A stretch of DNA of 32,000 nucleotides, from NCBI RefSeq assembly GCF_003966335.1, contig NZ_CP034549.1:2550001-2582000 (forward strand), written 5' to 3'. Source of the stretch: Nonlabens ponticola. GTDB lineage: Bacteria > Bacteroidota > Bacteroidia > Flavobacteriales > Flavobacteriaceae. The notes under the pieces are model-generated. The model was given only the letters and a program-made list of their open reading frames with translations, did no database searches and was not told where the DNA came from. Positions 777-25,550 of the stretch are shown in pieces. Both the position numbers and the translations under genes were made by a program. Position 1 is the first letter of the stretch; each line of letters starts with the position of its first letter.

Positions 777-2237
777 TTATGCTATTTCCTTTAAAAAATA
801 ATCTCTCAAAATTTCCTTAAATTTTGGAGAGTTTATACCATTCGCTTTCTCCAATATTTTCTGTTTATTAAAATATTCGATACCATACTTTTTCGTTTTG
901 ACCTTAGCGTTTGCAAGTTTTTTTTCGGCGGCTTCTGTAAAACCACCAGTACTCCAGATCTCAAACGTGAGTGATTTTTCTGGATAAACATTCATAGCCC
1001 ATTTTCTTATAATCACAATTTTATTAGAAATATAGTCCTCGATATAATCTATATCAACTGGGTAATTATAGCCTTTACATTCAACGATTTTTACTTCATT
1101 TTCAAAAACTGCCAATACATCTATTTCCTTTGATTGGTTGGTTTCTTGTAATGTCACTCTTTTGCTTATATCTAAATTACGGCAATACTTACTATAGTAA
1201 TATCCAACAGCAAGTTCAAAAAGATCTCCTCTTAAATTGTTGGTTTTTCCATCTACTAGTTTGGTCAATTTCTCCATCAAATTGATGTATTGTTCTGGAT
1301 CTTTTTTTAGAATAGCTCCAGCATTAGTTACTATATTGATTAGAGATTTTAATAATTCACTATATTCATTTCCAAACAGTTCCCTTATGGAAGCTATCAG
1401 CACACCATTACTTTTTAGCTTATTAAGAGCCTTGGTCTTTATACCATCAACAATTATCACAGGAAAAAGATCTAGAACTGGATTTGAAGCTTTTATAGCT
1501 GCTATTTTTCTTAGAAAGAAACTAACCGTTTCTTCATTGGTATCATTACCTAACAAAATGTCTGCAATTAAAAAGCCTGGGTTTTTGACATTACCCTTGT
1601 ATCTGGTTAGTCCATCAATATATGTTGGTGCCGAAAATGCAAATTGAAAACCACCAACAACATTATTATTTTTACCCTTTTTAAAGGATGTCAAGCCTAT
1701 GTTTTTACTCCATATTTCAAATCTCTGTAAAACAATAGCTTTAGAAAGTTCAATTGCTTTTATATGACTTAAATTAGGATTATGTTTTCCACCAAGCAGC
1801 GCATTTAAGCCTAAAGTTTCGTCATCATATTTTCTAACAAAATCATTTTTCAAGAGAAGCTCAATAAGAGTGTCAAATTTCATATGACCATCAATGCGAC
1901 TTATTGGACTTATAGAATAATTTGCTAATTCCTTCATATTTACAAGCCCGTGATGAAATTTTATCGCCGTGATTATAGCACCTATTCTTTTAGCATCAGA
2001 CATTATAGCTGCTAGTAAACCATCGTAATATTCTTCGGTCTGATAGTCATCGGAGTGATAAATGAAAGACTTTTTATCACTAAAAATACCTTTCAATTTA
2101 TGAATTGGACTTTTAAAACGTTCGATTCTCTTTCTAGCCGCTTCCTCAGTAATACCGTACTTTTTTGACATTATACGAGATAAATCTCCCGATAATATTC
2201 CGCCGTTTTTTCTAATATGTGTTACTATTTTTGTCAC
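777..2237 (-). CDS. 486-aa protein with N-terminal wHTH-like segment and C-terminal PD-(D/E)xK nuclease-like core; last gene of the Gabija-containing operon
   Basis: N-terminus IVTHIRKNGGILSGDLSRIMSKKYGITEEAARKRIERF looks like a winged helix. C-terminus GDLFELAVGYYYSKY...KEIDVLAVFENEVKIVECKGY fits the E...D...ExK pattern of restriction-endonuclease-fold proteins. Apparent GTG start lies 20 nt after the upstream stop. Confidence 0.65.
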   Translation of the reverse strand: MTKIVTHIRKNGGILSGDLSRIMSKKYGITEEAARKRIERFKSPIHKLKGIFSDKKSFIYHSDDYQTEEYYDGLLAAIMSDAKRIGAIITAIKFHHGLVNMKELANYSISPISRIDGHMKFDTLIELLLKNDFVRKYDDETLGLNALLGGKHNPNLSHIKAIELSKAIVLQRFEIWSKNIGLTSFKKGKNNNVVGGFQFAFSAPTYIDGLTRYKGNVKNPGFLIADILLGNDTNEETVSFFLRKIAAIKASNPVLDLFPVIIVDGIKTKALNKLKSNGVLIASIRELFGNEYSELLKSLINIVTNAGAILKKDPEQYINLMEKLTKLVDGKTNNLRGDLFELAVGYYYSKYCRNLDISKRVTLQETNQSKEIDVLAVFENEVKIVECKGYNYPVDIDYIEDYISNKIVIIRKWAMNVYPEKSLTFEIWSTGGFTEAAEKKLANAKVKTKKYGIEYFNKQKILEKANGINSPKFKEILRDYFLKEIA

Positions 2238-2257: not shown

Positions 2258-4276
2258 CTAACTGTCTTCAGCCTTGTCATTTTTTTTTATTTCAATGACG
2301 TCCCAAATATTTCGGTCGATTTCTTTTAAGTTTTTGTCAAATCTTGATTTCTCGACCGCAAAAGCTAATAAATGGGTTGGCCTCGAAAACCCAACATACA
2401 TCATCTTTAAAGTTTGATTTAGTTTAGCGGTGGCGGCCACGGTTAATCCTTTTGATGATACATCAATAGGAACACCGAAAAATTGGTCTTTAACTCTTTC
2501 GGATTCATACTTTCCATTCCAAAAAGTTTCTAGATAAAGACTTGCAGTATGAGTTTGCCCCTTAATATTATGTACCGTACCAACTTTGATTTGAAAACCA
2601 TCGTGATCATAATAGTTTTTAAATTCGTTTAGTTCTTCTTCATCTTTATGAACTGAAGGTGTAGTGATAAATGTATTGGAATTGTTAATTTCAGATCCAA
2701 ACCAAGAAAGTAGATTTGGTATGAAATCTCTTATTTCAGCTAGAGTATCATTTATGTTTGATTCAGCAAGATAAATACTCCAATTGTAAATTTTATTCTT
2801 AAAACCATCATATTCATTGAGGTGCATCTTTTTGATTGTGTGAATTAGACGGTATGGCGTCATATATCTATTATGTTCATCTTTTAAATTTTCAAGTCGA
2901 AAGACTTTAGTTAAACAGCTCAATATAGCAGAACGACCAGTCTTTAGAGAACCATTGTGTTTTGGTAAATAAAGTAAATAGTCTTCTAAAGTTTCAAACT
3001 CTAATTTACTTTTGGATGTATTACTTTTTAAGCTTGGGAGATAGGTGTTTAGACAAAGCTTATGGTCTTTATCTGTCTCTTTCCGCCATCCAAAAGCGTG
3101 GTAGTTTTGTGTAGAGATTGGTAGATATCCTTTTTCTTGATATTCACTTATCGTTTTAGAAAATCTAGGTATTACTTGATGAGCCTCTGTGACCTCAAAT
3201 ACGTACATTATTGGCTTTATATCAATTACACTATCGTCATCGTTATTTCCGCGACCTTCGACTTCTGTTGGTGTTGAAGACAAATTTTGTACAATACTAG
3301 CAACGCGAGGACTTAATCTATGACTTCCTTTAAAAAACAACTTATCCAATCTTTGATTCCAAATTTTTTCCGTGCTGATGTCTCCAGAGAAAATACATTG
3401 ATTTAAATCACCCAGGCGTTGCAATTTTGAAGTACAGCTATGACCTGTGAATAATTTTTCTATCAAACTTATTTGGTGCAGCTCCATATCCTGCATTTCA
3501 TCTACAAATACATACTGGAATCTTTGTTGTATTAATCGATCATAATCCTTTATTTCATCCAATAGCACATCAGCAAGAAAATAAGCGTCATCGTAGCAAA
3601 GCATTCCAGTCTCTAAGGTTTTTTCCTTTGTAATCTTTAACCATTCAGTGATCCTCTCAATTTCAAAAGGCGTGAACTTTACTCTTCTTGGATTTGGTGT
3701 TTTTACCTCTAGTAACTTGCCATTCATTTTGTGAACCATCACATAACCGCTTTTACTTTTTTGGAAACGGTAATTATATAATACGTTAAAAACGTTGTTG
3801 TAATAAATAGCATTATTCTTTTCTTGTCTTGAAAAGCCTTCTTTTCCGTAGTTGAAAAATTTTAATATTGTTTCATTGTAAATATCATTATCAATACGAG
3901 CAGGTTTTTGTTTGTATTTTAAAAGGTATGCAGGGATGGCTAAAAATGTGTCAACAAAACTTTGAATGGTACCAACAAAATTGGGATGAGAAAATAACTT
4001 AGGGCAAAGATGACCTATTCTATCTTTTATTTCATCTACAGCGGCATTTGTATGTGATATTACTAATATTCCCTTATTATCAAAAAGTGGTAGTTTTTTC
4101 TCTAAAATCAATAGCTTGGCGAGTAGAGCTGTAGTTTTTCCACTACCAGGAACAGCTTGAAGATCAATCGTAGTTAAGTTTTTTATAAAATCCGTACGCT
4201 CTTCATCAAAAGACCGGCCATTCTTAAGAAGTATTTCTTCCGCATAATTTATATCTTCCTCTCTAATATTAATCAT
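2258..4276 (-). CDS. gajB: UvrD/Rep/PcrA-like SF1 helicase, GajB-like (Gabija)
   Basis: Walker A AVPGSGKTTAL, motif Ia VISHTNAAVDEI, motif II YVFVDEMQDM, motif V/VI GTVHNIKGQTHTA and MYVGFSRPTHLL. The start overlaps the stop of the upstream OLD gene by 8 nt. Confidence 0.75.
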   Translation of the reverse strand: MINIREEDINYAEEILLKNGRSFDEERTDFIKNLTTIDLQAVPGSGKTTALLAKLLILEKKLPLFDNKGILVISHTNAAVDEIKDRIGHLCPKLFSHPNFVGTIQSFVDTFLAIPAYLLKYKQKPARIDNDIYNETILKFFNYGKEGFSRQEKNNAIYYNNVFNVLYNYRFQKSKSGYVMVHKMNGKLLEVKTPNPRRVKFTPFEIERITEWLKITKEKTLETGMLCYDDAYFLADVLLDEIKDYDRLIQQRFQYVFVDEMQDMELHQISLIEKLFTGHSCTSKLQRLGDLNQCIFSGDISTEKIWNQRLDKLFFKGSHRLSPRVASIVQNLSSTPTEVEGRGNNDDDSVIDIKPIMYVFEVTEAHQVIPRFSKTISEYQEKGYLPISTQNYHAFGWRKETDKDHKLCLNTYLPSLKSNTSKSKLEFETLEDYLLYLPKHNGSLKTGRSAILSCLTKVFRLENLKDEHNRYMTPYRLIHTIKKMHLNEYDGFKNKIYNWSIYLAESNINDTLAEIRDFIPNLLSWFGSEINNSNTFITTPSVHKDEEELNEFKNYYDHDGFQIKVGTVHNIKGQTHTASLYLETFWNGKYESERVKDQFFGVPIDVSSKGLTVAATAKLNQTLKMMYVGFSRPTHLLAFAVEKSRFDKNLKEIDRNIWDVIEIKKNDKAEDS

Positions 4277-6086
4277 TGCAAGCGTATTTTATGGCATCAA
4301 TTAGATATTTAATGCTCTGGTCGGTTTCATCAATAGGTAAAACGCTATTTTTTTCAATACTAGCAGCAACCTCATAGGCTATTTGAGTTTTATGTAAACC
4401 TTTATTAATTAATTTTTTTCCTAATTCCTGTTCTATATTTCCTTCATCTATTTGTGGGTGTGATTTCTTGAATGCTTGAAAAAAGAGTTTTGATAATGAA
4501 GTAGATTTTGAAAGAGCATATTCTAGAGTCCAATCTACGGCGACGAATGTTTTTACATTTTGAAAATTGAATTTCTGGACTATCTCCTCTCTTTTCATTG
4601 TAGATCTTTGCTTGATATCGTCTACATCTTCTTTAGTATATGTTTTTACAATTTCACCTTCTTCATTCTTATCAACATCTAACTTATAAGCTCTGACATC
4701 GACATCTGTAATTACTGCGACTGGAATATCAATCTTAGTGGTATCATTTTCTCGAAGGTAAATTCTAGAATATTGTTGAAATGCAGTATTGCCAACATTA
4801 ACAATGGATACACCTGCTTCCGTCAGATTTTTCGAGATATGGCCTTGCTCTTTGAGACGTTGAGCAATTGCCGGAATAAGTATTTCTTCAGACCAACCTT
4901 CAACCATAATAATACCATTAGCAAAAAATAAATTTGCCTTTGTAGCATCTAAGAACCTTTCTAAAAATGAGTAGTCTTCTTTTTTTAATTTTGTATGATT
5001 TGGGCCTAATGGGAATGCTGAATCGTTTGAGCAAATAATTAGGTTTTCTAATTTGATTTTTGATCCTAAATTGGGGCTATGAGTAGAGAGAATAAGCTGA
5101 ATTTGTTTTTGCTTTTGTAATGCCTCAATTATTTGCATCTGAGCTTGTGGATGCAAGTGCGCTTCGAGCTCCTCTATAAGACCTAATCTCAATCCTGACC
5201 AATCTCTTTTTTGTAGATGAAGCAATTCAGAAGCCATAAAAAGACGATTTAATGTGCCGAGTCCTGGATTTACTTCATCTTTTATAGACAGTTCTAATTT
5301 TTCAAGTATTGTCTTGAGATTATTACCTTTTACACCAAAAGCTGACTCCTTAGAATCATCATAAAAGGATTTAATATAACTGTCAATATCTGTTTTAAGT
5401 TCTTTACCTTTCAAATCTTCCTTTGGTAAATCTTCATCATCATTGTTTTTGCCTAAAAAGTATTTTTCTACAGAATTATTAAAATCTTTAAAGAGACCTA
5501 CAAGTAAGTGATCTAAATCCTTATTCTTAAAAGCTTCGTGTGCCTGAAGAATTTGAGTAAGTCTAGAATTTTTTCTCGGCACCAATTCAGATTTCGCATC
5601 TCGCAGTGGTCTGAGATATGTGGTTTTGAGGTAATCTTTTGCTTCTGCATTTAACTGAAAGCCTACTGGGTCTATCCCAGCTTTCACATCTGCTGGAAAA
5701 ATTCTATTACTTACTATATTCCTCCTTACCTCTAGTATTAACCGTAAATAACATCTCTTTTTACCATCAGCATCTTCAATCCATCCCAGCCATTCCGTAA
5801 AGTGTTTTGCTTCTTCAATCTCAAGATTCTCAAATACTATTTCTATTCTTAAATGTTCCGTGTTCAAAAAGAAATCGTCTTGGTCTATTTTATACCAATC
5901 ATAACTGTGTGTTTTTAAAACAATTTTGATAGCATCGATTATTGCAGATTTTCCTGAATCGTTTTTGCCTACTAAGACATTTATGCCTTCTGTAAAATCG
6001 AGATTAAGATTTGGTTTTGCCAAATCGATCTTTTCAGAACTACCAAATTTTCTAAAATTCCAAAGCTTTAAATTTTTTAAATACAT
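4269..6086 (-). CDS. gajA: OLD-family ABC ATPase plus TOPRIM nuclease, GajA-like (Gabija / class 2 OLD)
   Basis: N-terminal LKLWNFRKF...VGKNDSGKSAIIDAI (Walker A), LIEELEAHLHPQAQ (Walker B / D-loop typical of the AAA_15/OLD type), LILSTHSP (H-loop). C-terminal TOPRIM Glu IIMVEGWSEE and DxD VAVITDVDV. Directly followed by a UvrD-like helicase. Confidence 0.8.
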   Translation of the reverse strand: MYLKNLKLWNFRKFGSSEKIDLAKPNLNLDFTEGINVLVGKNDSGKSAIIDAIKIVLKTHSYDWYKIDQDDFFLNTEHLRIEIVFENLEIEEAKHFTEWLGWIEDADGKKRCYLRLILEVRRNIVSNRIFPADVKAGIDPVGFQLNAEAKDYLKTTYLRPLRDAKSELVPRKNSRLTQILQAHEAFKNKDLDHLLVGLFKDFNNSVEKYFLGKNNDDEDLPKEDLKGKELKTDIDSYIKSFYDDSKESAFGVKGNNLKTILEKLELSIKDEVNPGLGTLNRLFMASELLHLQKRDWSGLRLGLIEELEAHLHPQAQMQIIEALQKQKQIQLILSTHSPNLGSKIKLENLIICSNDSAFPLGPNHTKLKKEDYSFLERFLDATKANLFFANGIIMVEGWSEEILIPAIAQRLKEQGHISKNLTEAGVSIVNVGNTAFQQYSRIYLRENDTTKIDIPVAVITDVDVRAYKLDVDKNEEGEIVKTYTKEDVDDIKQRSTMKREEIVQKFNFQNVKTFVAVDWTLEYALSKSTSLSKLFFQAFKKSHPQIDEGNIEQELGKKLINKGLHKTQIAYEVAASIEKNSVLPIDETDQSIKYLIDAIKYACND

Positions 6087-6096
6087 ATGCTATAAT

Positions 6097-6468
6097 TTAC
6101 TCTCCAAAAATGTAATCATAAACAGATTTGCTGTCCAATGGACCAGCAAGACCATTCATACCTCTAGGCTTTGGCGCTAGTTTAAAAATGTATACCCATT
6201 TAGAAGCGATATTTGCTCCTTGTGGCTGCTTCATATTAAGTGTCCCTTTGTCAGAAAAGAAAGCTTCAACTTCATTAGCTTTCATCATCGTTCCTGCATT
6301 AATACATTTCCAATGAAGTATTTTTCCATTTCTGACCGAATGTTCTGCTTTGCGACGTTTTTCGTTATTTGTAATGCCTGCGTACCAACCATTAAACCGT
6401 GGGTTTTTACTGCCCATAGTATTTTTTACAAACTTGGTTAGTTCGCTTTTAATTGCTCTTGTTTCCAT
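6097..6468 (-). CDS. 123-aa hypothetical protein, weak GIY-YIG-like signature
   Basis: GWYAGITNNEKRRKAEH resembles the Y-[IV]-G-[IV]-T-x-[DN]-x-x-R-R-x-x-EH half of GIY-YIG/URI domains, and a later NEVEAFF could supply the conserved Glu. The first GIY strand is not evident. Starts 2 nt after the upstream stop and ends 10 nt before the gajA-like start. Confidence 0.55.
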   Translation of the reverse strand: METRAIKSELTKFVKNTMGSKNPRFNGWYAGITNNEKRRKAEHSVRNGKILHWKCINAGTMMKANEVEAFFSDKGTLNMKQPQGANIASKWVYIFKLAPKPRGMNGLAGPLDSKSVYDYIFGE

Positions 6469-6470
6469 AT

Positions 6471-8174
6471 TTAAGTTACATCTAAGATTTTGAAGTTGAG
6501 TTTTTTAGAAAAATAGAGTTCGTCGAAATAACCTTGTAAATAAGGATCTGGAACCAAATAGGCGTCACTTTCACACAGCTCTTTAAATTTTTGTGGATTT
6601 TTTAGAAACATTGCGCAAACATCAAGTTCATCTCTAGATAAAAGACGACCGTGAAGGAGTTCTCTAAATTCTAAATAGTCAATAAATTTCTTGAATCTAT
6701 TATTATATTCTGCACCCAACGTCTTCAGAAATATTTCTAAATCATCTATGCAAACAGACCAAGGGTAAAAGTCTTCGCTGCTTTTTTTGTTAAGTAAAAG
6801 ACCTAAATCTATTTGTAATGAAGCAAACCTCTCAGACGTAACAACTATTGTAAAGACATCAATGATTTGCGACGTATTTAAAACTTCGCTGTGATTTTTA
6901 CTCTTTATAGTTATTGCCTCATCATTTAGAATTGCTTGTTCTACCTCAAAACATTGTTCATACCCTTTTTGAATACAATAATCAAAGTCTGACCTTATTC
7001 TCTCTGTAGCTTTTTTAGTGTTTCTCCACGGTTCTCTGCTACGAGAGGCTTTACACTCAATTACAAATGCTATTCTGTTTACTATGTATAGCAAATCCTT
7101 TTCAGCGGGATTGCTATTAATATAATAGTTGTTGTATGAAGTGACATTTTTTGCTTTACTGAAAAATCTGTCAAATATGTTTTGAGTTTGAGACTCTAAA
7201 ATAACCTTTCCTCTTCTTAAATTAAGTTGCTCTTTTTCCTTTTCTGTTTCAGTAAGAACTTGATAGAGCAGTTTGTAAACCGCATTAGGTAATTGCTTTT
7301 GAAATACATTCAAAAATGTTTTGTTATTAATTTTTATGATTGGTTTATGCTCTAATGGGTTGGGTTGTGAGTAAAATAAGTTATCAAATGAATCATTAAT
7401 ATCTATGGATAATAATTTACAGAAAACATCTACATCCTTCTTATTGAAAGACTTGTAGTAGTCATCTTTTGTAAATAATAAACAGCTGTGCGGATTCTCA
7501 AAAAAATCTAGAAAATTATCTTGTAATTCTAAAGGAAGTTGAGACAGACTTTCTTCAAATTTTCCAGCTTGAGCGTTTTGCACAAAATCTTTCATTCTTG
7601 GATCAAAGAGAAAACTTTTTGATGCAATGGCTTTTCTTTGATAATCATCCTCTGAAAACTCACAGAGTGCCATTAATGTTTTTAAGTCAATTCCTAGTCT
7701 TTCTTTTATTTTATCTTGATAGGGTTTAAATAAGCGAATTACTTTATTAAGTTCTTGTTCTCTATAATCAAGTACACCATTTTGAAAATAATCTTTAAAA
7801 GCAAGTTCGTGGATCAGCATTTCTGACCTATCTTCTTTTGATACAGTCGTATCAAATCTTGAATAATCCCACAAATAGAAACTAACAATTTCGAGCAAAA
7901 TTTCTCCAACTTTTTGAAGTATTTTATCATTCTCTTCGGAATAATAGAAGTCCTCAGATCCTACTTCATCAGAGGAAAGTCTCAGCATAATAAGATAAAT
8001 TGAATCCTTGTACTTAGACTTGAATTTTTCAGAAAAGCTCAATTGATTTCGTTCTGGATGATGACGCACGAAGTCTGCAAAGAAGCATACAAAGCTTTCT
8101 TTGGTATATCTTGAAATTATCTGTTGAATTTCAATTGATTTCTGTTCTATATCGACTCCCTTCATTTGCTCCAT
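6471..8174 (-). CDS. 567-aa hypothetical protein with NERD-like / PD-(D/E)xK motif in the C-terminal half
   Basis: RRGKVILESQTQNIFDRFF...EKDLLYIVNRIAFVIECKASRS fits the E...D...ExK nuclease core. No P-loop seen. Its ATG overlaps the TAA of the Type IIG gene (TAATG at 8172-8176), implying translational coupling. Confidence 0.65.
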   Translation of the reverse strand: MEQMKGVDIEQKSIEIQQIISRYTKESFVCFFADFVRHHPERNQLSFSEKFKSKYKDSIYLIMLRLSSDEVGSEDFYYSEENDKILQKVGEILLEIVSFYLWDYSRFDTTVSKEDRSEMLIHELAFKDYFQNGVLDYREQELNKVIRLFKPYQDKIKERLGIDLKTLMALCEFSEDDYQRKAIASKSFLFDPRMKDFVQNAQAGKFEESLSQLPLELQDNFLDFFENPHSCLLFTKDDYYKSFNKKDVDVFCKLLSIDINDSFDNLFYSQPNPLEHKPIIKINNKTFLNVFQKQLPNAVYKLLYQVLTETEKEKEQLNLRRGKVILESQTQNIFDRFFSKAKNVTSYNNYYINSNPAEKDLLYIVNRIAFVIECKASRSREPWRNTKKATERIRSDFDYCIQKGYEQCFEVEQAILNDEAITIKSKNHSEVLNTSQIIDVFTIVVTSERFASLQIDLGLLLNKKSSEDFYPWSVCIDDLEIFLKTLGAEYNNRFKKFIDYLEFRELLHGRLLSRDELDVCAMFLKNPQKFKELCESDAYLVPDPYLQGYFDELYFSKKLNFKILDVT

Positions 8175-11100
8175 TACCCATTCTCCACAATCCTAATCTC
8201 CTCATCACTCAATCCATACAACTGATACACCATTGCATCTATTTGTTGTTCTAGGGTGTTGATTTGTGATTGTAGGTCTTGTGCTTTTTTCTTGTTTTGT
8301 TCAAACAGGTCTAACCATTCAAACTCGTCTGTTTTGGTAAGTACGGCAACCGGTGCTTGACCTTCTTTATCTCGCAATTTGTTAGTGGCTTTAATCGCTT
8401 TGTTCAGTTCTTTTATAAACTCCCCAAAATCTAAATCTTGCCAGTTTTCGAGTTTGCGTGATGTTTTAAGTAACTGAAATTTTACAAAAAGGTATTTTAC
8501 AAATTTTACTTTCAAAGAATTAAGCTCTGGTTGTAGTTTTTGAAGTTTTAAGCCATATTGCGAAATGTCATTTCTTTGAGTAAAATCCGTACCTGGCAAA
8601 GGAAAAGCACCTAATTTATCCAAACTAATTTTTGCAAATACTTTTCCTTTGATATCGTGTAACAGTCTATAGAAGATTGTAGCTACCTGAGAATTTAAAA
8701 TGGTAAGTAAGAAATCTAATGAATATTCCTCATTATTCTCATAAATACCGTGAACTAGAGTATCAAAATAATAATTGTTATTGTCTTTTGCTGCGATAAA
8801 TCTATCTCCTGTTTTTCTGACTACAATTTTCTCATTTTCAAATAATTCAGGTGTTCTTAAAGCAAAGTCTATTCGAGTTTGCTTTTTCATTCCTTTCTTA
8901 CTCTGGATATCATCTAAGTTCAAGTTATCAGCAATGTTGTAATCATAATTAACAAATTGTCCGCCCCATTGGATAGAATTTGTATTTAACTCTTTTCCCC
9001 AAATAATCGGTTTGTGATTATCGGAAAGCTTTTCATCTGTAATAAGTATTTGTTTAATATTACCAGGATTGAGACCGTTTTTTAAGGTGTAAAACTCTCT
9101 TATCGTTTTAAGGGTATGGAGTTTTTTTACTATCAAGTTTGCACCTTCGGCAATCGGCGATATTTCAAAGTGAGGAACTGAAAGAAAAAACTCTTGAGAA
9201 ATATCATTTACTAACGCCGTTTGACCATCGTAATCAAAATATTTGTCAGCCGAAATCAACTTCATCTCATTAGAAATATTGGGATTATCAACGATTTCAT
9301 ATTTAAGTATTAGACTACCGCCAACTTCTGCATCAGGGAAGATCTTCTCAGAAATCATAAAGACCTCGTGTATTTTTGACTTAGTGAGAAGGTATTCGCG
9401 AATATCTTTGAAATAAGTGTTGAATAAGAGTGATTTTGGAATTATGAATTGAATTAAACCCTTCTCAAATATTTGAAACATTCGCTCTATGAACAAAATA
9501 TAGAGGTTAATCTTATAGCTTGTTAAAGGGTAATTCTTTTTGTAATAAGCCTCTTCACCGTCAGACAAGAAAATTCCATAAGGCGGATTCCCAATCACAA
9601 CATCAAAACCTCCGTTTGCAAACACTTTCGCGAAAGCGGTCTCCCAGTTAAAAGCTTTATCTCCCGCTATGGTTTTACTGTCTATTAAACTATTACCACA
9701 TTTTATATTACTGCTCAAATCGTTGAGCTTACGGCGTGGTTGTGCGGTGCGTAGCCAGAGTGAAAGCTTCGCAATCTCTACAGACTCCTCGTTTAGATCT
9801 ACGCCATAAATATTGTTCTCTAGTATGGTGTTTTCTATATCTGGAAACTGTAAGCCACCACCTAGAATTTTGGTCTTAAGCTCGTCTATGTACTGATGTT
9901 CTTTGATGAGAAAATCCAGCGCCTGGTTAAGAAATGCACCAGAGCCACAAGCAGGATCACAAATAGTAATCTGTAGCAACCAGTCACGGTAGGTGTCTAG
10001 CGTTTCAACTAGCTTTTGTATGGTCTTGTCGTTTCGCTTCTTTCTTCCGGTACCACGGCCTTTAAAATACTCTTCTTCTTTAAAACCAAGTTCGGTTTTT
10101 CTATCATCGCATAGTTTACCTACGGTATTTTCTACAATGTATTTTGTGATGTACTTAGGCGTGTAAAAAACACCATCCTTCTTACGCTTGCTTTTCTGTT
10201 TGTCAAAGTTGCCACCTTCTATTTCGGCATTAATGCTTTCAATCTCGTTGAGAGAATTTTCAAAAATATGACCAAGGATATTGACATCTACTTGGCTTTC
10301 AAAATCGTAAGTCGCCAGTTTTTTAGTGTGATTGTAAAGTAAATCATCATCGATAATCACACGATCCAGTATAGAATCTGGTTTAAAGAGACCACCATTG
10401 TAGGCAAAAATCTCTTTGTTTTCTGCATCGCCCTTACGGCCTTTATCCAGGTAGTTAAAGTGCTTTTTAAAACGATCGTACAACGGCTCATCTACATCCA
10501 GCTTGCGTATGGTGTCCCATTCTGCAAGTCGTTTTATGGTATAATTGGGTTGTAAGAGTCCGCGATCTTCTGCAAAAAAGATAAAGAGAAAGCGATCTAT
10601 AAGTTTCTGCGACTTTTTAAAAAGCGTGAGCTTTACATTTTTCTCCAGGCGTTCAAGATCTGACTGGTGTTCTGCATTATCTGTAATACCAGTCTCTTCC
10701 TGTAACGCGACTTTTAAGACTTTACCGTTTTTCTTGACCAGATCACGGTATAGCTCACGTTTAAAAAGCGAATAATCTTTATAAAACTCTTTGGTAATTT
10801 CTTCTTCTTTAATAAGAGAATCCTGCTTTATTTGAAGCGGTAATTCCTTGAGCAAATTGTCTTTGTACAAACACAAATACAACAATCCAAAGTCATCTCG
10901 TGTAAGGTTAAACAAGTCAAAGTCCAGTAACTCTGTAGTGTCATCTATGTAAAAACGTAGTTTTTCAAAATTAGACGTGATGACAAACCTGCATCCTTTG
11001 TGATTTACCTTATAATCAAAAGCCTGACGTCTTATGCTTTCCAGATCCTTTGTATTTGTCCCTTTAAGTTCTACAACGGCTACTGTTTTTTCTTCTGTGA

Positions 11101-11374
11101 TAATGGCACCGTCTGCCTTGCGATTATTTTTCTCGTTTTTGTATTCTGTAGTTAGGTTGTATTTTGGCTTAGGATTAATGGTATAATCAAGCACGTTTAC
11201 AAAGAGTTCTGTAAGAAAAGTAGCCTGTATTTGCTCCTCGTTACTCTTGTCTATATTTTGCTGTATCTCAAGGTTGAGAAAGAATTTAGTGTACTTGCGA
11301 TATGCCTTATCTACTGCGTTTGTGTCCTGTTGTGCGAGATATTTTTTGAGTACAGATGTCTGGAATAATGCCAT
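8174..11374 (-). CDS. Type IIG/IIL-style fused restriction endonuclease, N6-adenine methyltransferase and specificity protein
   Basis: 1066 aa. N-terminal PD-(D/E)xK-like ADGAIITEEKTVAVVELKGTNTK. Gamma-class MTase motif I ICDPACGSGAFL followed by motif IV VVIGNPPYG. A long C-terminal region is consistent with a TaqI-like target-recognition domain. Confidence 0.8.
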   Translation of the reverse strand: MALFQTSVLKKYLAQQDTNAVDKAYRKYTKFFLNLEIQQNIDKSNEEQIQATFLTELFVNVLDYTINPKPKYNLTTEYKNEKNNRKADGAIITEEKTVAVVELKGTNTKDLESIRRQAFDYKVNHKGCRFVITSNFEKLRFYIDDTTELLDFDLFNLTRDDFGLLYLCLYKDNLLKELPLQIKQDSLIKEEEITKEFYKDYSLFKRELYRDLVKKNGKVLKVALQEETGITDNAEHQSDLERLEKNVKLTLFKKSQKLIDRFLFIFFAEDRGLLQPNYTIKRLAEWDTIRKLDVDEPLYDRFKKHFNYLDKGRKGDAENKEIFAYNGGLFKPDSILDRVIIDDDLLYNHTKKLATYDFESQVDVNILGHIFENSLNEIESINAEIEGGNFDKQKSKRKKDGVFYTPKYITKYIVENTVGKLCDDRKTELGFKEEEYFKGRGTGRKKRNDKTIQKLVETLDTYRDWLLQITICDPACGSGAFLNQALDFLIKEHQYIDELKTKILGGGLQFPDIENTILENNIYGVDLNEESVEIAKLSLWLRTAQPRRKLNDLSSNIKCGNSLIDSKTIAGDKAFNWETAFAKVFANGGFDVVIGNPPYGIFLSDGEEAYYKKNYPLTSYKINLYILFIERMFQIFEKGLIQFIIPKSLLFNTYFKDIREYLLTKSKIHEVFMISEKIFPDAEVGGSLILKYEIVDNPNISNEMKLISADKYFDYDGQTALVNDISQEFFLSVPHFEISPIAEGANLIVKKLHTLKTIREFYTLKNGLNPGNIKQILITDEKLSDNHKPIIWGKELNTNSIQWGGQFVNYDYNIADNLNLDDIQSKKGMKKQTRIDFALRTPELFENEKIVVRKTGDRFIAAKDNNNYYFDTLVHGIYENNEEYSLDFLLTILNSQVATIFYRLLHDIKGKVFAKISLDKLGAFPLPGTDFTQRNDISQYGLKLQKLQPELNSLKVKFVKYLFVKFQLLKTSRKLENWQDLDFGEFIKELNKAIKATNKLRDKEGQAPVAVLTKTDEFEWLDLFEQNKKKAQDLQSQINTLEQQIDAMVYQLYGLSDEEIRIVENG

Positions 11375-11552: not shown

Positions 11553-11915
11553 TCAATCAATGAGAATCCTCGTTAGTTCATCTAGTAGGTCATCTAGCTT
11601 TTGTTTTTCAATTCCCGATAAATAATTTAATGCATTTAATTTTTTCATCAATTGATTAAGATTTATACCTATCCTATGTAGCTCAACTTGTTGATAAGGT
11701 GCTATCATCTGAGTCACATTGAGCTTTTTGTTTTTCATACAGTCCAGTAAAAAACGTCTAATGAATCTACCATCGTATTGCGTTTTCATACTATACATTT
11801 CGCAATATTTAATAACAAAGTCCTTTTCAATTTTCGTGAGATATAGATTTATTTGATGATCTCTTTTCATGTCTGGATTATCAATCTCTGGACGTCCTCC
11901 TTTTTTTTTGGCCAT
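11553..11915 (-). CDS. MobC-family (Bacteroides MobA-type) relaxosome accessory / RHH-like protein
   Basis: 120 aa. HRIGINLNQLMKKLN matches the G-x-N-x-NQ-x-x-x-x-N signature of the mobilisation protein MobC family. No relaxase gene follows it. Confidence 0.6.
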   Translation of the reverse strand: MAKKKGGRPEIDNPDMKRDHQINLYLTKIEKDFVIKYCEMYSMKTQYDGRFIRRFLLDCMKNKKLNVTQMIAPYQQVELHRIGINLNQLMKKLNALNYLSGIEKQKLDDLLDELTRILID

Positions 11916-15670: not shown

Positions 15671-16921
15671 CTAGGCTTTCTTTAAAACATTAAAATCTAT
15701 ATTAAAAACCTGATCTACAGCTTCCTTCTTTTCATCATTATCAACTTGGTAATAAGTGTTCAAGGTTTTCATATCTAAATGACCAGTTATTTTACTGATA
15801 AGTTTATCACTCTTCCCTTCTCTTTTCATCATGGTAATAAAAGTTCGTCGCGCAGTATGAGAACTAACCCGTTGCCAAAACCTCATTGCCTTCCTGGTGA
15901 CAGTTTTTCCACTTACAGAGACTTTTTCAACTTTCTGTGTAAACCCAGCGTCAAGAAATACTGTCTTGATATATTCATTATGATTCTGATTTGCTACGAG
16001 TGGTAAATTATAATCATACTTTTTTAGAATAAACCTAGCGATTTTACTTAATGGAATTTCACGTACTTTTTTTTCTGAGCCTTTTTCTTCTTTCAGATAA
16101 AGAGTATCATCTGACACGCTACTCTTCGAAATAAATTTCAATTCTCCGAATCGACATCCCGTGACGCATGAAAATATAAATACATCTCTCACACGTTCTA
16201 AAGACTTGCTTTTACACTTGGAATGTAGCAGTTGTTCAATATCCTTCTTAGTAAGTGCTATCTGGTTCGTTATGACTTGTTTTTTTCTTTTGAAAGCTTT
16301 AAACTCATCATTATAGGTTATTCTATTCTTGTAAGCCCAGAGCATGAAGGTCTTAAAAAGTCCTAGATTCCTAGAAAACGTATTATTAATGTGTCCTTTA
16401 TCTGACAAGCAATAATCAGTGAATTCTGACATAAAAGTCGAATTTATGTTATTGAAGTTCAGCTTGTAATTTCGTTTCGCCTGAAAATCTAATAACAAAG
16501 TTTTCATGTAACCATATCGTTTGATTGTAGAATCTGACCAATCCTTATTTTTGGTTTTTTCTGAAATAAATCTGTCATAAGCATTAAAAAAGTCATTGCT
16601 CCCCTTAATTGTTTTTTTGAACTTGAGATCTAGAGCGTCTTTAAGAACACTGGAATTAAATTGAATGTGCATAAGCTTTGATGCGGTCAACGACTCATGA
16701 AAACATTCGGAGTAGCGACCAAGTTGTGTACGTATGGATCTAACTCCTGGAGTTTTGCTGTTGAGAATTGGGGATTTGCTTTTCTGGTCCCAATCCTTAG
16801 GGTGAATCACTTCTCCAGTTGAATAAACAAATTTCTTCTGCTCTTCCTTAAAGGAACAAGAAAATAAAATCAGCGTTTCTTTATTTGACTTAGGTTTCTT
16901 GAGATAAAAGGTATGCGTCAT
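15671..16921 (-). CDS. tyrosine recombinase / site-specific integrase (Bacteroidota type, canonical catalytic residues)
   Basis: Box I FSCVTGCRFGELKFI (Arg present), HTARRTFIT (HxxR), GHLDMKTLNTYYQV (His plus nucleophilic Tyr). N-terminal MTHTFYLKKPKSNKETLILF is the arm-binding-type start typical of Bacteroides integrases. Confidence 0.9.
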   Translation of the reverse strand: MTHTFYLKKPKSNKETLILFSCSFKEEQKKFVYSTGEVIHPKDWDQKSKSPILNSKTPGVRSIRTQLGRYSECFHESLTASKLMHIQFNSSVLKDALDLKFKKTIKGSNDFFNAYDRFISEKTKNKDWSDSTIKRYGYMKTLLLDFQAKRNYKLNFNNINSTFMSEFTDYCLSDKGHINNTFSRNLGLFKTFMLWAYKNRITYNDEFKAFKRKKQVITNQIALTKKDIEQLLHSKCKSKSLERVRDVFIFSCVTGCRFGELKFISKSSVSDDTLYLKEEKGSEKKVREIPLSKIARFILKKYDYNLPLVANQNHNEYIKTVFLDAGFTQKVEKVSVSGKTVTRKAMRFWQRVSSHTARRTFITMMKREGKSDKLISKITGHLDMKTLNTYYQVDNDEKKEAVDQVFNIDFNVLKKA

Positions 16922-17327: not shown

Positions 17328-18548
17328 ATGATTAAAACTTATTTCTACCTCAAAGCAGACAAGCAAAACAGTAAAGGTGAATCAGCTATATACGCTAAAA
17401 TGAAGTTGCGTAAAAAAACCTCAACACTAAGCACTGGGAAGTATATTGATAAAGCCCGTTGGGAAGCTACTAACAAACTTAAAAATACCTTACGTGTAAC
17501 CCGTGAGAAAAACTGTCAAACAACTTTAAAACTACTAGAATCTAAAATTGAATCGATTTATCTAGAATTGGTAAAGGTGGATGCAGATGTTACTCTAACC
17601 GATATAAAGAATCAGTTAAAGGGGAAACAGTCCAAAACCTATGACCTAGATGTCTTAGAACTTTTCCAGAAGCATAACGATTATTTTAAACGTAAATACG
17701 AAGCTGGTGAACGAACAAAGGCTTCTTTGCAGAAGTATAATAGGGCAAAAGACCTTATATCAAACTTCATATATGAAAAATACAGGAAAAAGCGATACAA
17801 TGTCACCGACATTGACAGTGCATTTATTTATGAACTAGACGATTTTTTGAGACACGAATCGGTTTTCCAAAGTGTTACAGGCATCAGTCATAATTCAGTT
17901 GTGAAATATTTTCAATGCTTTAAAACCATGTGTAAATACGGCATCAAAAGAAACATCATCGACCGAAATCCCTTTATTGTTTACGACGAAAAACTTATTA
18001 TAAGAGATGCTGTTTTCCTGACGCAGGATGAGCTAAAACGAATAGAAGATAAAACGTTTAGCACTGAACGTCTTAATCGAGTAAAGGATATATTTCTTTT
18101 TTCTTGTTATACCAGTTATGCACCTATTGACGTTGATAATTTAACCATAAAGAACCTCATTAAGGATAACCAAGGTACATTATGGATTAAGACAAATAGA
18201 GCTAAAACAGCGATAAAATCTAATGTACCCGTTTTACCACCAGTAAAACGGATTCTTGACAAATATTCTCATCTCGAAGGTGAGAAACTACTACCATCAA
18301 TAAGCAATCAGAAGATTAATGAGTATTTAAAGGAAATAGCCGTATTGTGCAAAATAGATAAGAAACTTACTCATTATGTTGCTAGACATACCTTTGCTAC
18401 AACCGTAACTTTGGGTAATGGTGTAGCCATTGAAAACGTTTCTTCAATGATGGGGCATTCAAAAATCACTATGACACAACACTATGCAAAGGTTCTTGAT
18501 AGTAGTGTGAAAAATGATATGGAGAAGCTAAAATTAAAGCTTGCATAG
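17328..18548 (+). CDS. tyrosine recombinase / integrase, apparently without canonical Arg I (IntDOT-like)
   Basis: HYVARHTFATT (HxxR) and MMGHSKITMTQHYAKV (His plus Tyr) are present. Where integrase A has TGCRFGEL, this protein has TSYAPIDV, so Ala replaces the box I Arg in my alignment. Confidence 0.85.
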   Translation: MIKTYFYLKADKQNSKGESAIYAKMKLRKKTSTLSTGKYIDKARWEATNKLKNTLRVTREKNCQTTLKLLESKIESIYLELVKVDADVTLTDIKNQLKGKQSKTYDLDVLELFQKHNDYFKRKYEAGERTKASLQKYNRAKDLISNFIYEKYRKKRYNVTDIDSAFIYELDDFLRHESVFQSVTGISHNSVVKYFQCFKTMCKYGIKRNIIDRNPFIVYDEKLIIRDAVFLTQDELKRIEDKTFSTERLNRVKDIFLFSCYTSYAPIDVDNLTIKNLIKDNQGTLWIKTNRAKTAIKSNVPVLPPVKRILDKYSHLEGEKLLPSISNQKINEYLKEIAVLCKIDKKLTHYVARHTFATTVTLGNGVAIENVSSMMGHSKITMTQHYAKVLDSSVKNDMEKLKLKLA

Positions 18549-22379: not shown

Positions 22380-25300
22380 ATGCAACTAATCAATAATCAG
22401 GACTCCTTATTACTGGATGTTCTTAAGAGCAAAATTAACGCTCAATCCAATATTTCCATAAGCTGTAACTATTTTACCTCATTTGCTTTATTTGAGCTGA
22501 TTGATGTTCTCAAAAGTGCATCTAAAGTTGAGGTCTTGTTGGACTTTCAACCAGAGAAGGAAGAGGAATTCAAGTTTATTCAAAGCGATTCAGAGAAAAA
22601 ATTGAACCTGAAACTAGATAGAAAGAACCGAATTACTCAGGTTCTAAAACTCCTTGCAGATAAGATTCAGATACGTAAAGGTGGTACTGGAAACCAAAAC
22701 CTTGTAATCGTTGAAAACGAAAATATATCGACTTGTTATTTACTAACTCCTTTGAATTTGGATTCTGTAAGCCTAGGCGTATTACCCTCAGAGCTACCTG
22801 TATTCATAAATTCTTTTGACGACCCTAACAACCAGTATTTGGGTTTATTCCAAAATTCATGGAACAACAGCAGCTTATCGCTCAATGATACCATAATAGC
22901 AAAACTAGAAAAAGGCACCCGTGATTATACGGGTGAAGAAATCTACAAATACTGCATCCGTGAGATATTTCAATACTCTACCATAAATGAAAGAGCTGAT
23001 GAAAAACTTCAAAAAGTAGGTTTCAAAGATTCTAAAATATGGAGCCTGCTATACAATTTTCAGAAGGATGCTGTAATAGGGGCAATTGAGAAAATTGAAA
23101 CATATGGTGGTTGTATTATAGCAGATTCGGTAGGTCTTGGAAAGACATTTGAAGGACTGGCGGTGATGAAATATTACCAGTTACGAAATGATAGAATATT
23201 AGTTTTAGCCCCTAAAAAACTACGCGAAAACTGGACAGTCTACCAGATGAATGATAAGAGAAATATCCTTGCTCAAGACCGTTTGAACTATGATGTTCTC
23301 AATCACACTGATTTATCCCGTAATAAAGGTAAGTCTGGAGACATAGACCTTGAAATGATTAATTGGGGAAATTATGACTTAGTCGTTATAGATGAATCCC
23401 ACAACTTCAGGAACAACCCTACAAAGAGAGGAATGACAAGGTACAAGCGTTTGATGAATGATGTTATCAAGTCAAATATTAGAACTAAGGTTCTTATGTT
23501 ATCTGCCACGCCTGTCAATAATAAAATGAATGACCTGAAGAATCAAATCGCCTTCATTACAGAAGGTGATGATGAAGCTTTCATGTCCCATGGGATAGAT
23601 AGCATCAGTCAGGTGATGAAGGATTCCCAACGCCGATTTACGCAATGGTTTAGAGATGGTGACCCTGATGACTTGAATGTAAACTCCTTAATGGAAAGTC
23701 TTGATGGGGCTTATTTTAGAATTCTGGATATGCTCACCATCGCAAGGTCTAGAAAGCATATTGAAAAATATTATGACACCACTAATATTGGGAAGTTCCC
23801 TAACAGACTTAAACCTGATACGGTTCATCCTGAGATAGATACTCACGGAAAATTCAAAAATATTGGACAAGTGTACGATGAGATTAGTACGCTTACACTT
23901 GCCTCTTATACACCTCTCGGATATGTTAGAGCAGACAAGCGTGACTATTATGAACAGAAGTATGATATGCAAACGCACACAGGTAGTGTTTTTAAGCAAG
24001 TAGACCGTGAGCAGAGTTTGATATATCTTATGAGAGTAAATCTATTAAAACGTCTAGAAAGCTCTATATACTCCTTTAAATTAACCACAAAAAAGCTTAT
24101 TGAATTAGTAGACAGCAATCTTAAACAGCTTAGAGAACATCAAAATGGTGAAGTGGACTACGACCTCAACATTACTGATATAGATTTAGATGACACAGAA
24201 CTGGATGACCTTCTTATAGGCGGTAAAACTAAAGTGCTAATTCAAGATATTGATACGATACGCTGGAGACAGGACTTAGAACATGATAAACATATTCTGA
24301 CTCAATTATTGGGTAGCATCAAGCTTATAGATGTGGAACGTGATGCAAAGCTCAAAGAATTGAAAGACCGCTTATCTATAAAAATTGATAATCAACCGTA
24401 CAATACGGGTAACAAAAAAGCTATCATTTTTACAGCGTTTGCTGACACAGCAAATTACTTGTATGATGAACTTAGCGACTGGCTCAAGACAGAAAAAGGA
24501 CTTCATACAGCTTTAGTAACTGGCTCAGGTACGAACAAAACTAATATGCCAAAGTGTAGAAGTGACTTGAGTTCTATCCTAACTAACTTTTCCCCTCGTT
24601 CAAAGAACAGGAAAGATATTTTTCCTGATGAGAAAAATGAAATTGATATTCTATTTTGTACAGACTGTATTTCAGAAGGTCAAAACCTTCAAGATTGCGA
24701 TTATCTGGTAAACTATGATATACATTGGAATCCAGTACGCATCATTCAACGTTTTGGACGTATCGACCGTATCGGTTCTATTAATGAAAATATACAGTTG
24801 GTGAACTTCTTCCCTTCCATGGAATTAGACCAGTTTATTGATTTGGTAGCTCGTGTACAGGGTCGTATGGTGATGCTTGATGTAAGCGCCACTGGTGAAG
24901 ACAATGTAATAAGCAAATCAAATCGAGAGATGCAGGATTTGGATTATCGCAAGCGACAACTCAAACAATTACAAAACCAAGTGCTAGACCTTGAAGATAT
25001 TGATGGTAATATTTCTATTACCGATATGACCTTCAATGATTTTAAAATTGATTTAGAGAAAAGCTCAGACAGACAGCTTTCCGACCTCAACGACATTCCA
25101 CCTGCTTCTTATGCTGTTGTAAAGTCAAACCTCAACGAGATTAAGGATGGTGTAATATTCTGTTTAAAAGATACCAGTGCTGACTTCAAGGAAAAGCTCA
25201 AGAACAATATTTTGTATCCTTACTTTCTGGTATACCTCAGCATGGATGGTAAGACTATCGTAACAGCGTCGCAGACTAAGAAAGCCTTAGACTACTTCCG

Positions 25301-25550
25301 CAAATTATGTATGGGGCAAAATCAGGTATTACCAGATTTGGTTGCTCAATTTGAAAGGGATATTAGAGGGAATAGAAAGGTTTCCGCTTTCGCGAAAGCG
25401 TTACAAACAGCAATCATTGAGGTATCTGGCATACAAGAGGAATTAGGGCTGGACTCTCTCGCAACTCGCGGTGCGGTCAACTTGATGAGTAAAAGCATCA
25501 ATAAGGAAGACACCCTAGAGTTAATAAGTTATCTAGTCATTAAAGAATGA
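22380..25550 (+). CDS. SNF2-family (SF2) helicase/translocase with an unassigned ~220-aa N-terminal domain
   Basis: Motif I IADSVGLGKT, Ia ILVLAPKKLRENW, II DLVVIDESHNFRN, III MLSATPVNN, V FCTDCISEGQNLQD, VI HWNPVRIIQRFGRIDRIGS. The N-terminal region has a PLD-like layout, but I cannot find an HxK motif (IQIRKGG instead). Confidence 0.85.
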   Translation: MQLINNQDSLLLDVLKSKINAQSNISISCNYFTSFALFELIDVLKSASKVEVLLDFQPEKEEEFKFIQSDSEKKLNLKLDRKNRITQVLKLLADKIQIRKGGTGNQNLVIVENENISTCYLLTPLNLDSVSLGVLPSELPVFINSFDDPNNQYLGLFQNSWNNSSLSLNDTIIAKLEKGTRDYTGEEIYKYCIREIFQYSTINERADEKLQKVGFKDSKIWSLLYNFQKDAVIGAIEKIETYGGCIIADSVGLGKTFEGLAVMKYYQLRNDRILVLAPKKLRENWTVYQMNDKRNILAQDRLNYDVLNHTDLSRNKGKSGDIDLEMINWGNYDLVVIDESHNFRNNPTKRGMTRYKRLMNDVIKSNIRTKVLMLSATPVNNKMNDLKNQIAFITEGDDEAFMSHGIDSISQVMKDSQRRFTQWFRDGDPDDLNVNSLMESLDGAYFRILDMLTIARSRKHIEKYYDTTNIGKFPNRLKPDTVHPEIDTHGKFKNIGQVYDEISTLTLASYTPLGYVRADKRDYYEQKYDMQTHTGSVFKQVDREQSLIYLMRVNLLKRLESSIYSFKLTTKKLIELVDSNLKQLREHQNGEVDYDLNITDIDLDDTELDDLLIGGKTKVLIQDIDTIRWRQDLEHDKHILTQLLGSIKLIDVERDAKLKELKDRLSIKIDNQPYNTGNKKAIIFTAFADTANYLYDELSDWLKTEKGLHTALVTGSGTNKTNMPKCRSDLSSILTNFSPRSKNRKDIFPDEKNEIDILFCTDCISEGQNLQDCDYLVNYDIHWNPVRIIQRFGRIDRIGSINENIQLVNFFPSMELDQFIDLVARVQGRMVMLDVSATGEDNVISKSNREMQDLDYRKRQLKQLQNQVLDLEDIDGNISITDMTFNDFKIDLEKSSDRQLSDLNDIPPASYAVVKSNLNEIKDGVIFCLKDTSADFKEKLKNNILYPYFLVYLSMDGKTIVTASQTKKALDYFRKLCMGQNQVLPDLVAQFERDIRGNRKVSAFAKALQTAIIEVSGIQEELGLDSLATRGAVNLMSKSINKEDTLELISYLVIKE

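Follow-up and report, generated by a model that had tools for sequence, protein, structure and literature searches.

The 32,000-nt stretch of the Nonlabens ponticola genome analysed here (NZ_CP034549.1, positions 2,550,001 to 2,582,000 of the forward strand; its whole length is called the window) carries a defence operon in which the gene of a 567-aa NERD-family PD-(D/E)xK protein (NERD567) is directly followed by the gene of a 123-aa GIY-YIG-derived protein. The host of this operon is an integrase-bearing mobilisable element in the genome of a member of the Flavobacteriaceae. The two open reading frames (ORFs) had been proposed in an initial annotation, made from the sequence alone, to form a novel two-gene defence module. 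Considered as a whole, the data are probably best explained otherwise, by two separate single-gene cassettes that stand side by side by happenstance in one defence operon.

Both minus-strand ORFs are present as annotated (Table 1), and their location between a Type IIG restriction-modification (RM) enzyme and the Gabija pair GajA/GajB was borne out by PADLOC and Pfam. They are real conserved genes and not chance ORFs, since homologues form 107 clusters for the 567-aa protein, and 15 close clusters plus 246 clusters from a profile search for the 123-aa protein.

Occurrence and exchange of the two genes

NERD567 loci were collected by a scan with one genome per species, which gave 80 loci, and the 123-aa gene was searched within 10 kb of each by tblastn, using the 123-aa protein and 65 of its relatives as queries (labels such as L001, L012 or L021 designate loci with homologues of the window genes). 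An intact homologue was found in only 2 of the 80 loci, L021 and L023, both of which carry the same island and whose NERD567 homologues are 95% and 88% identical to that of the window, respectively; in L023 the two genes are adjacent and the 123-aa homologue is 82% identical. A third locus (L022) retains a 21-codon remnant of the 123-aa gene beside its NERD567 homologue (91% identical), and no gene of the 123-aa family was detected by tblastn in the other 77. Conversely, a degenerate DNA pattern scan gave 41 strong loci of the 123-aa family on metagenomic or viral contigs, none of which contains a NERD567 homologue, at least 1.8 kb of upstream sequence being available in 19 of the 36 loci with called contexts. 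Adjacency is thus confined to one island lineage, which comes very close to the complete lack of adjacency in other genomes that the initial annotation had named as speaking against a module.

Each gene was also found to be exchanged independently of the other. The same backbone in Tenacibaculum maritimum (L017) carries, in order, the Type IIG gene, a 288-aa gene, the 123-aa gene, a GajA-like gene (732 aa) and a GajB-like gene (628 aa). In the N-terminal part of the Type IIG gene, DNA identity to the window is 94.6%, and the final 276 nt, ending at position 8174, show 92%; no DNA homology is found from 8174 to 6472, which is exactly the NERD567 ORF, and homology resumes at 6472, with about 79% identity across the 123-aa gene. 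In L022, which has no Type IIG gene upstream, the NERD gene shows 91.7% DNA identity to that of the window and homology stops 62 nt into the 123-aa gene. The exact replacement in T. maritimum and the homology break in L022 indicate that NERD567 is a single-gene cassette. The two-gene system as first framed does not stand, which spares the work of testing the pair as a unit.

The 288-aa gene occupying the exact NERD567 slot (L017 7130-7996) has no match in Pfam or PADLOC and matches PHROG 26326, a family of unknown function; it may be another single-gene defence candidate.

The proposed module would amount to an obligate two-component defence system, composed of a large sensor-nuclease and a small GIY-YIG partner, which is very improbable and largely refuted by the distribution of the genes (77 of 80 loci on one side and 41 of 41 on the other lack the partner). 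The 2-nt distance reported initially was read directly from the DNA (the NERD567 stop TAA, then AT, then the ATG of the 123-aa gene) and suggests translational coupling; moreover, the two genes form one block of 93-99% DNA identity in L001/L021 while the Type IIG specificity region and the Gabija genes change, and they adjoin again in L023. This joint inheritance within the island lineage, together with the 2-nt spacer, makes a local functional interaction conceivable there and is counted among the points opposed to our explanation. The 123-aa gene is, however, equally tight to any upstream or downstream neighbour. In the window, 10 nt separate the stop of the 123-aa gene from the ATG of GajA; the stop of the Type IIG gene and the ATG of NERD567 share 1 nt (TAATG). 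Furthermore, the 123-aa gene is intact in T. maritimum behind the 288-aa gene, whereas in L022 it is the NERD gene that is intact and the 123-aa gene that is cut off.

Sequence and predicted structure of NERD567

Nearly all NERD567 homologues are about 560-620 aa long and from Bacteroidota; several are labelled "NERD domain-containing protein" by their source, and many have precomputed matches to Pfam NERD (PF08378). This model is matched by 34 of 53 full-length relatives at E<=0.01 (best E 1.4e-7), so that the NERD-like character claimed initially holds at the level of the family, with its conserved core; the window protein by itself scores below the Pfam threshold. Neither this protein nor the 123-aa protein has a match above the curated thresholds of Pfam, PADLOC, NCBIfam or PHROGs.

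The E...D...ExK core described in the initial annotation was recovered, with E327 in the string ILESQ and D360, E373 and K375 in the string EKDLLYIVNRIAFVIECKAS. In the alignment of 53 sequences, E327 is conserved in 52, and D360, E373, K375 and Q407 are invariant. The absence of a P-loop was equally confirmed (pattern [AG]xxxxGK[ST] not found in the 567-aa protein). The protein comprises an all-alpha N-terminal domain (about 1-310), the nuclease core (about 311-475) and a conserved helical C-terminal domain (476-567). In the AlphaFold2 (AF2) model (pLDDT 92.1, pTM 0.90), residues 9-306 are mostly helical, and the core has the order alpha-beta-beta-beta-alpha-beta (H311-337, E344-352, E359-365, E368-375, H386-417, E420-446); alignment and model together place the conserved PD-(D/E)xK catalytic residues within the expected core fold. 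Outside the Pfam NERD span lies a conserved acidic block (W472, D477, D478, E480, R504, D515, E516). Residues 470-516 contain the invariant acidic motif YPWSVCIDDLE, which holds W472, D477, D478 and E480, and this block might bind a second metal ion, form an interface or serve in regulation.

The N-terminal domain diverges faster than the core (among the more distant half of the family members, 21% identity versus 38%). A profile of residues 1-300 retrieved only the same family of about 565 aa and fragments of it; the domain is thus private to this family and not a shared sensor module, and the idea of a reusable sensor fused to other effectors was dropped, no modular reuse having appeared in the profile search. 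The 486-aa PD-(D/E)xK protein encoded at the end of the operon was also considered as a paralogue of NERD567 and rejected (hhalign probability 5%, with only a 26-column D..ExK core aligned).

Comparison of NERD567 with known systems

Foldseek searches of the PDB with the NERD567 model gave Upx (9wuf) as top match (E 3e-4, probability 1.00, 540 aligned columns), followed by PD-(D/E)xK enzymes, namely the R.BspD6I small subunit (1.4e-2), Can2 and Cdn1. Upx, an anti-phage system consisting of one PD-(D/E)xK protein, uses its large N-terminal part to sense the phage terminase (PMC13099982, PMC13601566). It combines in one polypeptide a large sensor-like region and a PD-(D/E)xK nuclease core of the ExK type, as is predicted for NERD567, but it is about 1200-1270 aa long, with three domains (NTD-MD-CTD) and two nuclease-like cores, against 567 aa here. 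Membership of NERD567 in the Upx family was rejected, as there is no sequence match and no PADLOC match and as the structural match is globally weak.

ZwsA (Zowangsin) of Pseudomonas aeruginosa is a stand-alone defence effector of the NERD type with the residues E535, D567, E580 and K582 (bioRxiv 10.64898/2026.04.06.716636). The spacing of E327, D360, E373 and K375 in NERD567 (33, 13, 2) was called the same, the two proteins being compared by the reported residues alone. Both are single-gene, have a large non-catalytic N-terminal part and are located in defence loci; NERD567 differs by its family-specific helical N-terminal domain (no Pfam match) and its conserved acidic C-terminal domain.

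Shedu (SduA, DUF4263) likewise has a variable N-terminal domain before a PD-(D/E)xK domain and a defence-island location. The initial annotation had suggested DUF4263 and DUF1837 as domains to be looked for, and neither was detected in the window protein (E<=1) or in its 53 relatives (E<=0.01); NERD567 was accordingly rejected as a member of Shedu or of Hachiman HamA (DUF1837). NERD567 is an uncharacterised branch of NERD, absent from PADLOC, which by analogy would follow the logic of the known single-gene systems combining a sensor with a PD-(D/E)xK nuclease.

Genomic context of NERD567

The neighbours of the 80 NERD567 loci were obtained from fresh ORF calls and clustered, orientation counts covering 76 loci. 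The upstream gene shares the strand of NERD567 in 64 of the 76 loci, and in 44 the gap between them is <=100 nt; the downstream gene does so in only 40 of 76, which shows that NERD567 is typically the last gene of an operon. The upstream genes identified by PADLOC are GajA/GajB in about 14 loci, with at least three GajA subtypes, JetABCD (Wadjet) in 11, IetA/IetS in 4, HerA in 2 and Old in 2. The Gabija subtypes found upstream elsewhere are PDLC00072/00127 and PDLC00090/00103, those of the window itself being PDLC00099/00146. Among the 80 loci, only L021 and L023 have a Type IIG gene immediately upstream, as does the window (and as do L001-L003, copies of the same island). NERD567 was therefore rejected as an accessory or specificity subunit of Type IIG enzymes, and it was not placed in a housekeeping family either, these being the two assignments that the initial annotation had regarded as fatal to its proposal.

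On the other side of NERD567, 13 loci show an Amidase_3 gene in convergent orientation together with tra genes belonging to a conjugative transposon (CTn), and another 13 have a module of MobC_2, relaxase and type IV coupling-protein (T4CP) genes. The three-gene block downstream of NERD567 in the latter (e.g. L057 11875-15620) had been considered as a new defence system and was rejected, its genes being MobC_2, relaxase and coupling protein. Homologues were also found on plasmids of Exiguobacterium, Streptomyces and Halobaculum; that of Exiguobacterium (28% identity over 90% of NERD567) is solitary beside IS3. No homologue of NERD567 or of the 123-aa protein was detected by tblastn in 50,697 phage records. 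The association of NERD567 with defence cargo on conjugative and mobilisable elements is clear.

Gabija pairs of differing PADLOC subtypes were observed at most three genes away from NERD567 homologues of four sequence clades (L030-L038, L045, L046, L048, L053, L074, L055 and the window). This recurrent neighbourhood may be more than the usual clustering in defence islands.

One alternative is that NERD567 is not autonomous and serves as a generic 3' add-on, an effector or back-up nuclease for the DNA-targeting system ahead of it, especially Gabija but also Wadjet, Iet or Type IIG. The prevailing same-strand orientation of the upstream gene, with frequent gaps of <=10-60 nt or overlaps (and about 10 nt between JetD and NERD567), is consistent with this idea, as is the presence of Gabija within three genes in about 17-19 loci, next to NERD clades of 100%, 59%, 37% and 34% identity and with different PADLOC GajA subtypes. 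It is nevertheless decidedly unlikely: the upstream partners are mechanistically unrelated and have nucleases of their own, solitary copies exist (L022 and the Exiguobacterium plasmid), and no neighbour cluster is common to more than 18 of the 80 loci.

A role in the backbone of integrative conjugative or mobilisable elements or in competition between them, for example by action on incoming or rival DNA or in DNA processing during transfer, and not against phages, was judged improbable. The 13 loci directly beside MobC_2, relaxase and coupling-protein genes (in both orders), the 13 directly before the Amidase_3 gene and tra block of CTn-like elements, and the MobC-like gene and integrase upstream in the window are in line with such a role, as are the lack of homologues in the phage records and the plasmid matches in three other lineages. 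NERD was also reportedly first noted on plasmids, by Grynberg and Godzik in 2004. Against it, NERD567 always stands, relative to mobilisation or transfer genes, on the side where the defence cargo lies, and it is replaced by unrelated cargo within a 94%-identical backbone, so that it is not an essential backbone gene.

The 123-aa protein family

The close homologues of the 123-aa protein (15 clusters) are all from Flavobacteriaceae, and the 246 clusters of the exhaustive profile search (E<=1e-3) are nearly all 90-150 aa long. The window protein has no match in Pfam (E<=1), PADLOC, NCBIfam or PHROGs; 45 of 66 profile-detected relatives match Pfam GIY-YIG (PF01541) at E<=0.1 (best 4.4e-6), mostly below the gathering threshold of 22.6 bits, P0144 reaching 23.3. 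The GIY-YIG-like character claimed initially is thus found in the family and is not detected by Pfam in the window protein. The matches cover only model positions of about 11-47, that is the YIG strand and the Arg/His helix; they start at about position 5-16 and never include the GIY strand, which agrees exactly with the initial description of a second half of the domain without its first strand. Where that strand would stand, residues 3-18 are predicted to be a helix (pLDDT about 94), and the family alignments contain no conserved Tyr upstream of Y29. As the GIY strand is lacking and the window protein does not reach the Pfam threshold, it is best called GIY-YIG-like and not a member of GIY-YIG.

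The string quoted in the initial annotation, GWYAGITNNEKRRKAEH, was found at residues 27-43. In the alignment of 66 sequences, R39, G31 and Y93 are invariant, and E68 (65/66), H43 (61/66) and Y29 (60/66) nearly so; N78 is present in 35 and is invariant in the close family (16 sequences), and W28 and T33 are also conserved family-wide. From the N-terminus, the layout is a helix, the YIG strand (W28, Y29, G31, T33), a helix carrying R39 and H43, a second strand and a helix carrying E68; N78 comes next, and the C-terminal strand reads S89-x-x-V-Y93-I-F-K, the family form of which is S-x-x-V-Y-[IV]-F-K. The AF2 model (pLDDT 83.6) has the N-terminal helix, flanking helices and strands at 28-33, 50-57 and 91-97, an arrangement that resembles the canonical sheet. 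The canonical GIY-YIG catalytic set is thus kept, with the second Tyr in the C-terminal strand.

When the family was compared by hhalign with canonical GIY-YIG proteins of about 90 aa, the alignment (probability 96.3%, E 2e-9) reached the Glu helix and its catalytic residues fell on the canonical positions. The small proteins of the UPF0213/YhbQ type (about 80-100 aa) have a nearly identical motif WY-x-GITN-x4-R-x3-H, and their Glu helix aligns; the 123-aa protein differs from the canonical form by a helix in place of the N-terminal GIY strand and by the invariant Tyr of the C-terminal strand. When this last strand was moved ahead of the YIG strand, the hhalign alignment extended onto the canonical GIY strand and the score rose from 54.2 to 57.9. 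On the basis of this gain and of the position of the second Tyr, we propose as a hypothesis that the C-terminal strand probably replaces the lost GIY strand, in a rearrangement resembling a circular permutation. The family would be a rare GIY-YIG core having lost the strand that gave the domain its name and kept the catalytic residues.

Neighbourhood of the 123-aa gene and cassette exchange

In the close subclade (>=55% identity), the 123-aa gene lies 10-12 nt upstream of a large cargo. This cargo is a Gabija pair of the window type in the window, in L001/L021 (GajA 67% identical) and in L194 (76%), a pair of the 732/628-aa type in L017, L023 and L152 (24-27% identical to the window GajA), and a pair of the 639/608-aa type (PDLC00083) in L151 and L217. 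In L177 the gene stands ahead of a GajA-like gene that is truncated. Other cargoes are a 980-aa gene with HSDR_N_2 and a STAND-like region (L012-L016), once with a divergent GajA-like gene opposite, and a pair of 376-aa and 330-aa genes. In total, at least five Gabija variants, with GajA 24-76% identical to that of the window, follow the subclade, and an OLD-family/GajA gene adjoins it in 8 of about 10 distinct contexts; the distant family members occur among small genes, without Gabija. The tree of the 123-aa protein is not congruent with that of GajA (89% identity for the 123-aa protein versus 24% for GajA in L017, and 63% versus 76% in L194). No homologue of the 123-aa protein was found by tblastn in plasmid records.

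The 980-aa protein (L012 3229-6171; L016 8072-11011), encoded 11 nt after the 123-aa homologue, has an N-terminal, nuclease-like HSDR_N_2 domain and a STAND-NTPase-like region, with a PADLOC match to Avs2 (6e-14) and a weak nSTAND3 match.

Sliding DNA identity between the window and L001 stays at 93-99% along NERD567 and the 123-aa gene, beginning with the end of the Type IIG gene. Exactly at the 123-aa stop codon it falls to 50-77%, a level that extends over GajA/GajB (about 2350-6100), and it is back at 95-100% where the 486-aa gene starts. These break points indicate that the Gabija pair is exchanged as an exact cassette between conserved flanks. As far as can be judged from sequence, the 123-aa protein may thus assist the varying cargo as an accessory nuclease, or its gene may mark the conserved edge of a hotspot where cassettes are exchanged or have a homing-like role. 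The fixed place of this gene at the 5' edge of the swapped Gabija cassettes is relevant to how defence cassettes are exchanged, and also to whether some lineages have Gabija accessory factors of their own.

Gabija, as described, consists of two genes, and its canonical form has no such 123-aa gene, whereas the close subclade lies about 10 nt upstream of bona fide GajA/GajB pairs of at least five variants. No GIY-YIG-type accessory gene of Gabija was found in the literature searched. The published GajC ("type II Gabija") is a MazF-like protein replacing GajA (PMC13069673); it is unrelated to the 123-aa protein, and this identification was rejected.

The 123-aa gene might instead have nothing to do with Gabija function and be only the border of an exchange hotspot, or encode a homing-type mini-nuclease promoting gene conversion of the cargo, an explanation that we regard as unlikely. 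It is favoured by the sharp identity break exactly at the 123-aa stop, with a far border (486-aa or 243-aa gene) that is conserved too, by the variety of the cargo (at least five Gabija variants, the 980-aa STAND-like gene, the pair of 376 and 330 aa), by the incongruent phylogenies and by the distant members without Gabija. The opposing evidence consists of the frequent adjacency of an OLD-family ATPase, the 79% DNA identity of the T. maritimum gene inside a backbone of about 94%, which indicates that it is not simply part of the backbone, and the AF2 model, which lacks a DNA-binding domain, free-standing GIY-YIG homing enzymes being known to carry one.

Behind GajB, the 486-aa gene recurs at 62-98% identity (window, L001/L021, L194 and L151), the Gabija pairs showing 25-76%; in L028, L029 and L008-L011 it immediately precedes NERD567 homologues. 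It may encode a further nuclease placed at the end of operons, or be a gene that flanks Gabija.

Proposed functions and weighing of the evidence

Under the explanation by two separate cassettes, NERD567 would be an autonomous effector of defence or of competition between mobile genetic elements (MGEs), with a catalytic core that is intact by sequence. Its N-terminal domain would keep the nuclease off until a cue from an invader is sensed, whereupon the core would cleave nucleic acid with the help of metal ions, by analogy with Upx and ZwsA. On conjugative or mobilisable elements, its gene typically closes operons of unrelated systems (Gabija, Wadjet, Iet, Type IIG RM). The 123-aa protein is one of the GIY-YIG derivatives of about 100-130 aa that keep the Tyr/Arg/His/Glu(/Asn) set and have lost the GIY strand. 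Its close subclade is a leader gene about 10 nt before variable cargo, mostly Gabija pairs, and its product is predicted to be a nuclease reduced to the catalytic core, serving or bordering the downstream cargo.

Besides the joint inheritance described above, several observations weigh against this explanation. Many of the 80 NERD567 loci represent a few related mobile elements, so that locus counts overstate the number of independent events. The window NERD567 scores 15.3 bits (E 0.03) against PF08378, the gathering score of which is 22.1, and no PADLOC model matches it. Its structural match to Upx has TM-scores of only 0.29 (query) and 0.17 (target), and the NERD567 profile retrieved from the PDB sequences (E<=10) only a spurious match, 9wuf not being among the results; the best such matches of the two families are spurious ones to a capsid protein (E 0.046) and to PT26-6P (E 0.14). 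As to the 123-aa protein, the hhalign probability is inflated, since the canonical set had been chosen through a DNA pattern that codes for this very motif, and the permutation brings a gain of only about 4 score units. Foldseek searches of the PDB and BFVD with the model returned nothing at E<0.05, so that the kinship with GIY-YIG rests on a profile match of about 45 residues; a permuted strand order would hamper sequential structure alignment.

If NERD567 is autonomous, it would be a new single-gene system, abundant on conjugative elements of Bacteroidota, a phylum under-represented in defence-system discovery, and its constant operon-terminal placement raises the question of how such genes are recruited behind unrelated systems.

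A more far-reaching version, in which NERD567 is a new single-gene system and the 123-aa protein is at the same time the permuted GIY-YIG leader of an extended Gabija, is doubtful. If true, NERD567 would be a widespread system of immunity or MGE competition in which a private helical sensor gates a NERD nuclease, occurring mainly in Bacteroidota with outliers on plasmids of Bacillota, Actinomycetota and haloarchaea, and with a preference for insertion at the 3' end of other defence operons and a repeated association with Gabija. The 123-aa protein would be a catalytically competent third component or leader of Gabija, and the 486-aa protein a fourth, in an "extended Gabija" of the Flavobacteriaceae.

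Gene order and other features of the window

The minus-strand genes form a nearly gap-free run in the order MobC-like, Type IIG, NERD567, 123 aa, GajA, GajB and 486 aa. The operon is tightly packed and probably co-transcribed; no terminator-like site was found on the minus strand between 11374 and 777, and a single transcript is plausible as a prediction from the DNA.

Table 1. Coordinates of the operon genes and of other features in the window
Feature	Coordinates	Strand	Evidence or remark
MobC-like 120-aa gene	11553-11915	-	upstream of the Type IIG gene
MmeI-like Type IIG RM enzyme	8174-11374	-	PADLOC REase_MTase_IIG 2.5e-253, Pfam
NERD567, 567-aa NERD-family PD-(D/E)xK protein, ATG start	6471-8174	-	ORF and family of 107 clusters
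123-aa GIY-YIG-derived protein, ATG start	6097-6468	-	ORF and 246 profile-search clusters
GajA (Gabija)	4269-6086	-	PADLOC 1.7e-238
GajB (Gabija)	2258-4276	-	PADLOC 1.5e-299
486-aa PD-(D/E)xK protein, D...ExK at about 369-386	777-2237	-	weak NERD match; PADLOC CARF4--CARF_PDDEXK 1.2e-6
Tyrosine integrase	15671-16921	-	
Tyrosine integrase	17328-18548	+	
SNF2/ResIII helicase	22380-25550		right-hand element
GmrSD type IV restriction enzyme	26307-28064		right-hand element
N6_N4 methyltransferase	28069-29940		right-hand element

In a comparison with the sister island L001, DNA identity is 39-58% in the specificity region of the Type IIG gene (about 8500-9550) and 90-99% elsewhere in that gene; this region is a target-recognition-domain swap relative to L001. 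The two divergent tyrosine integrases suggest that two integrated elements lie back to back, and the cargo of the right-hand element (helicase, type IV restriction enzyme and methyltransferase) is a second defence island.

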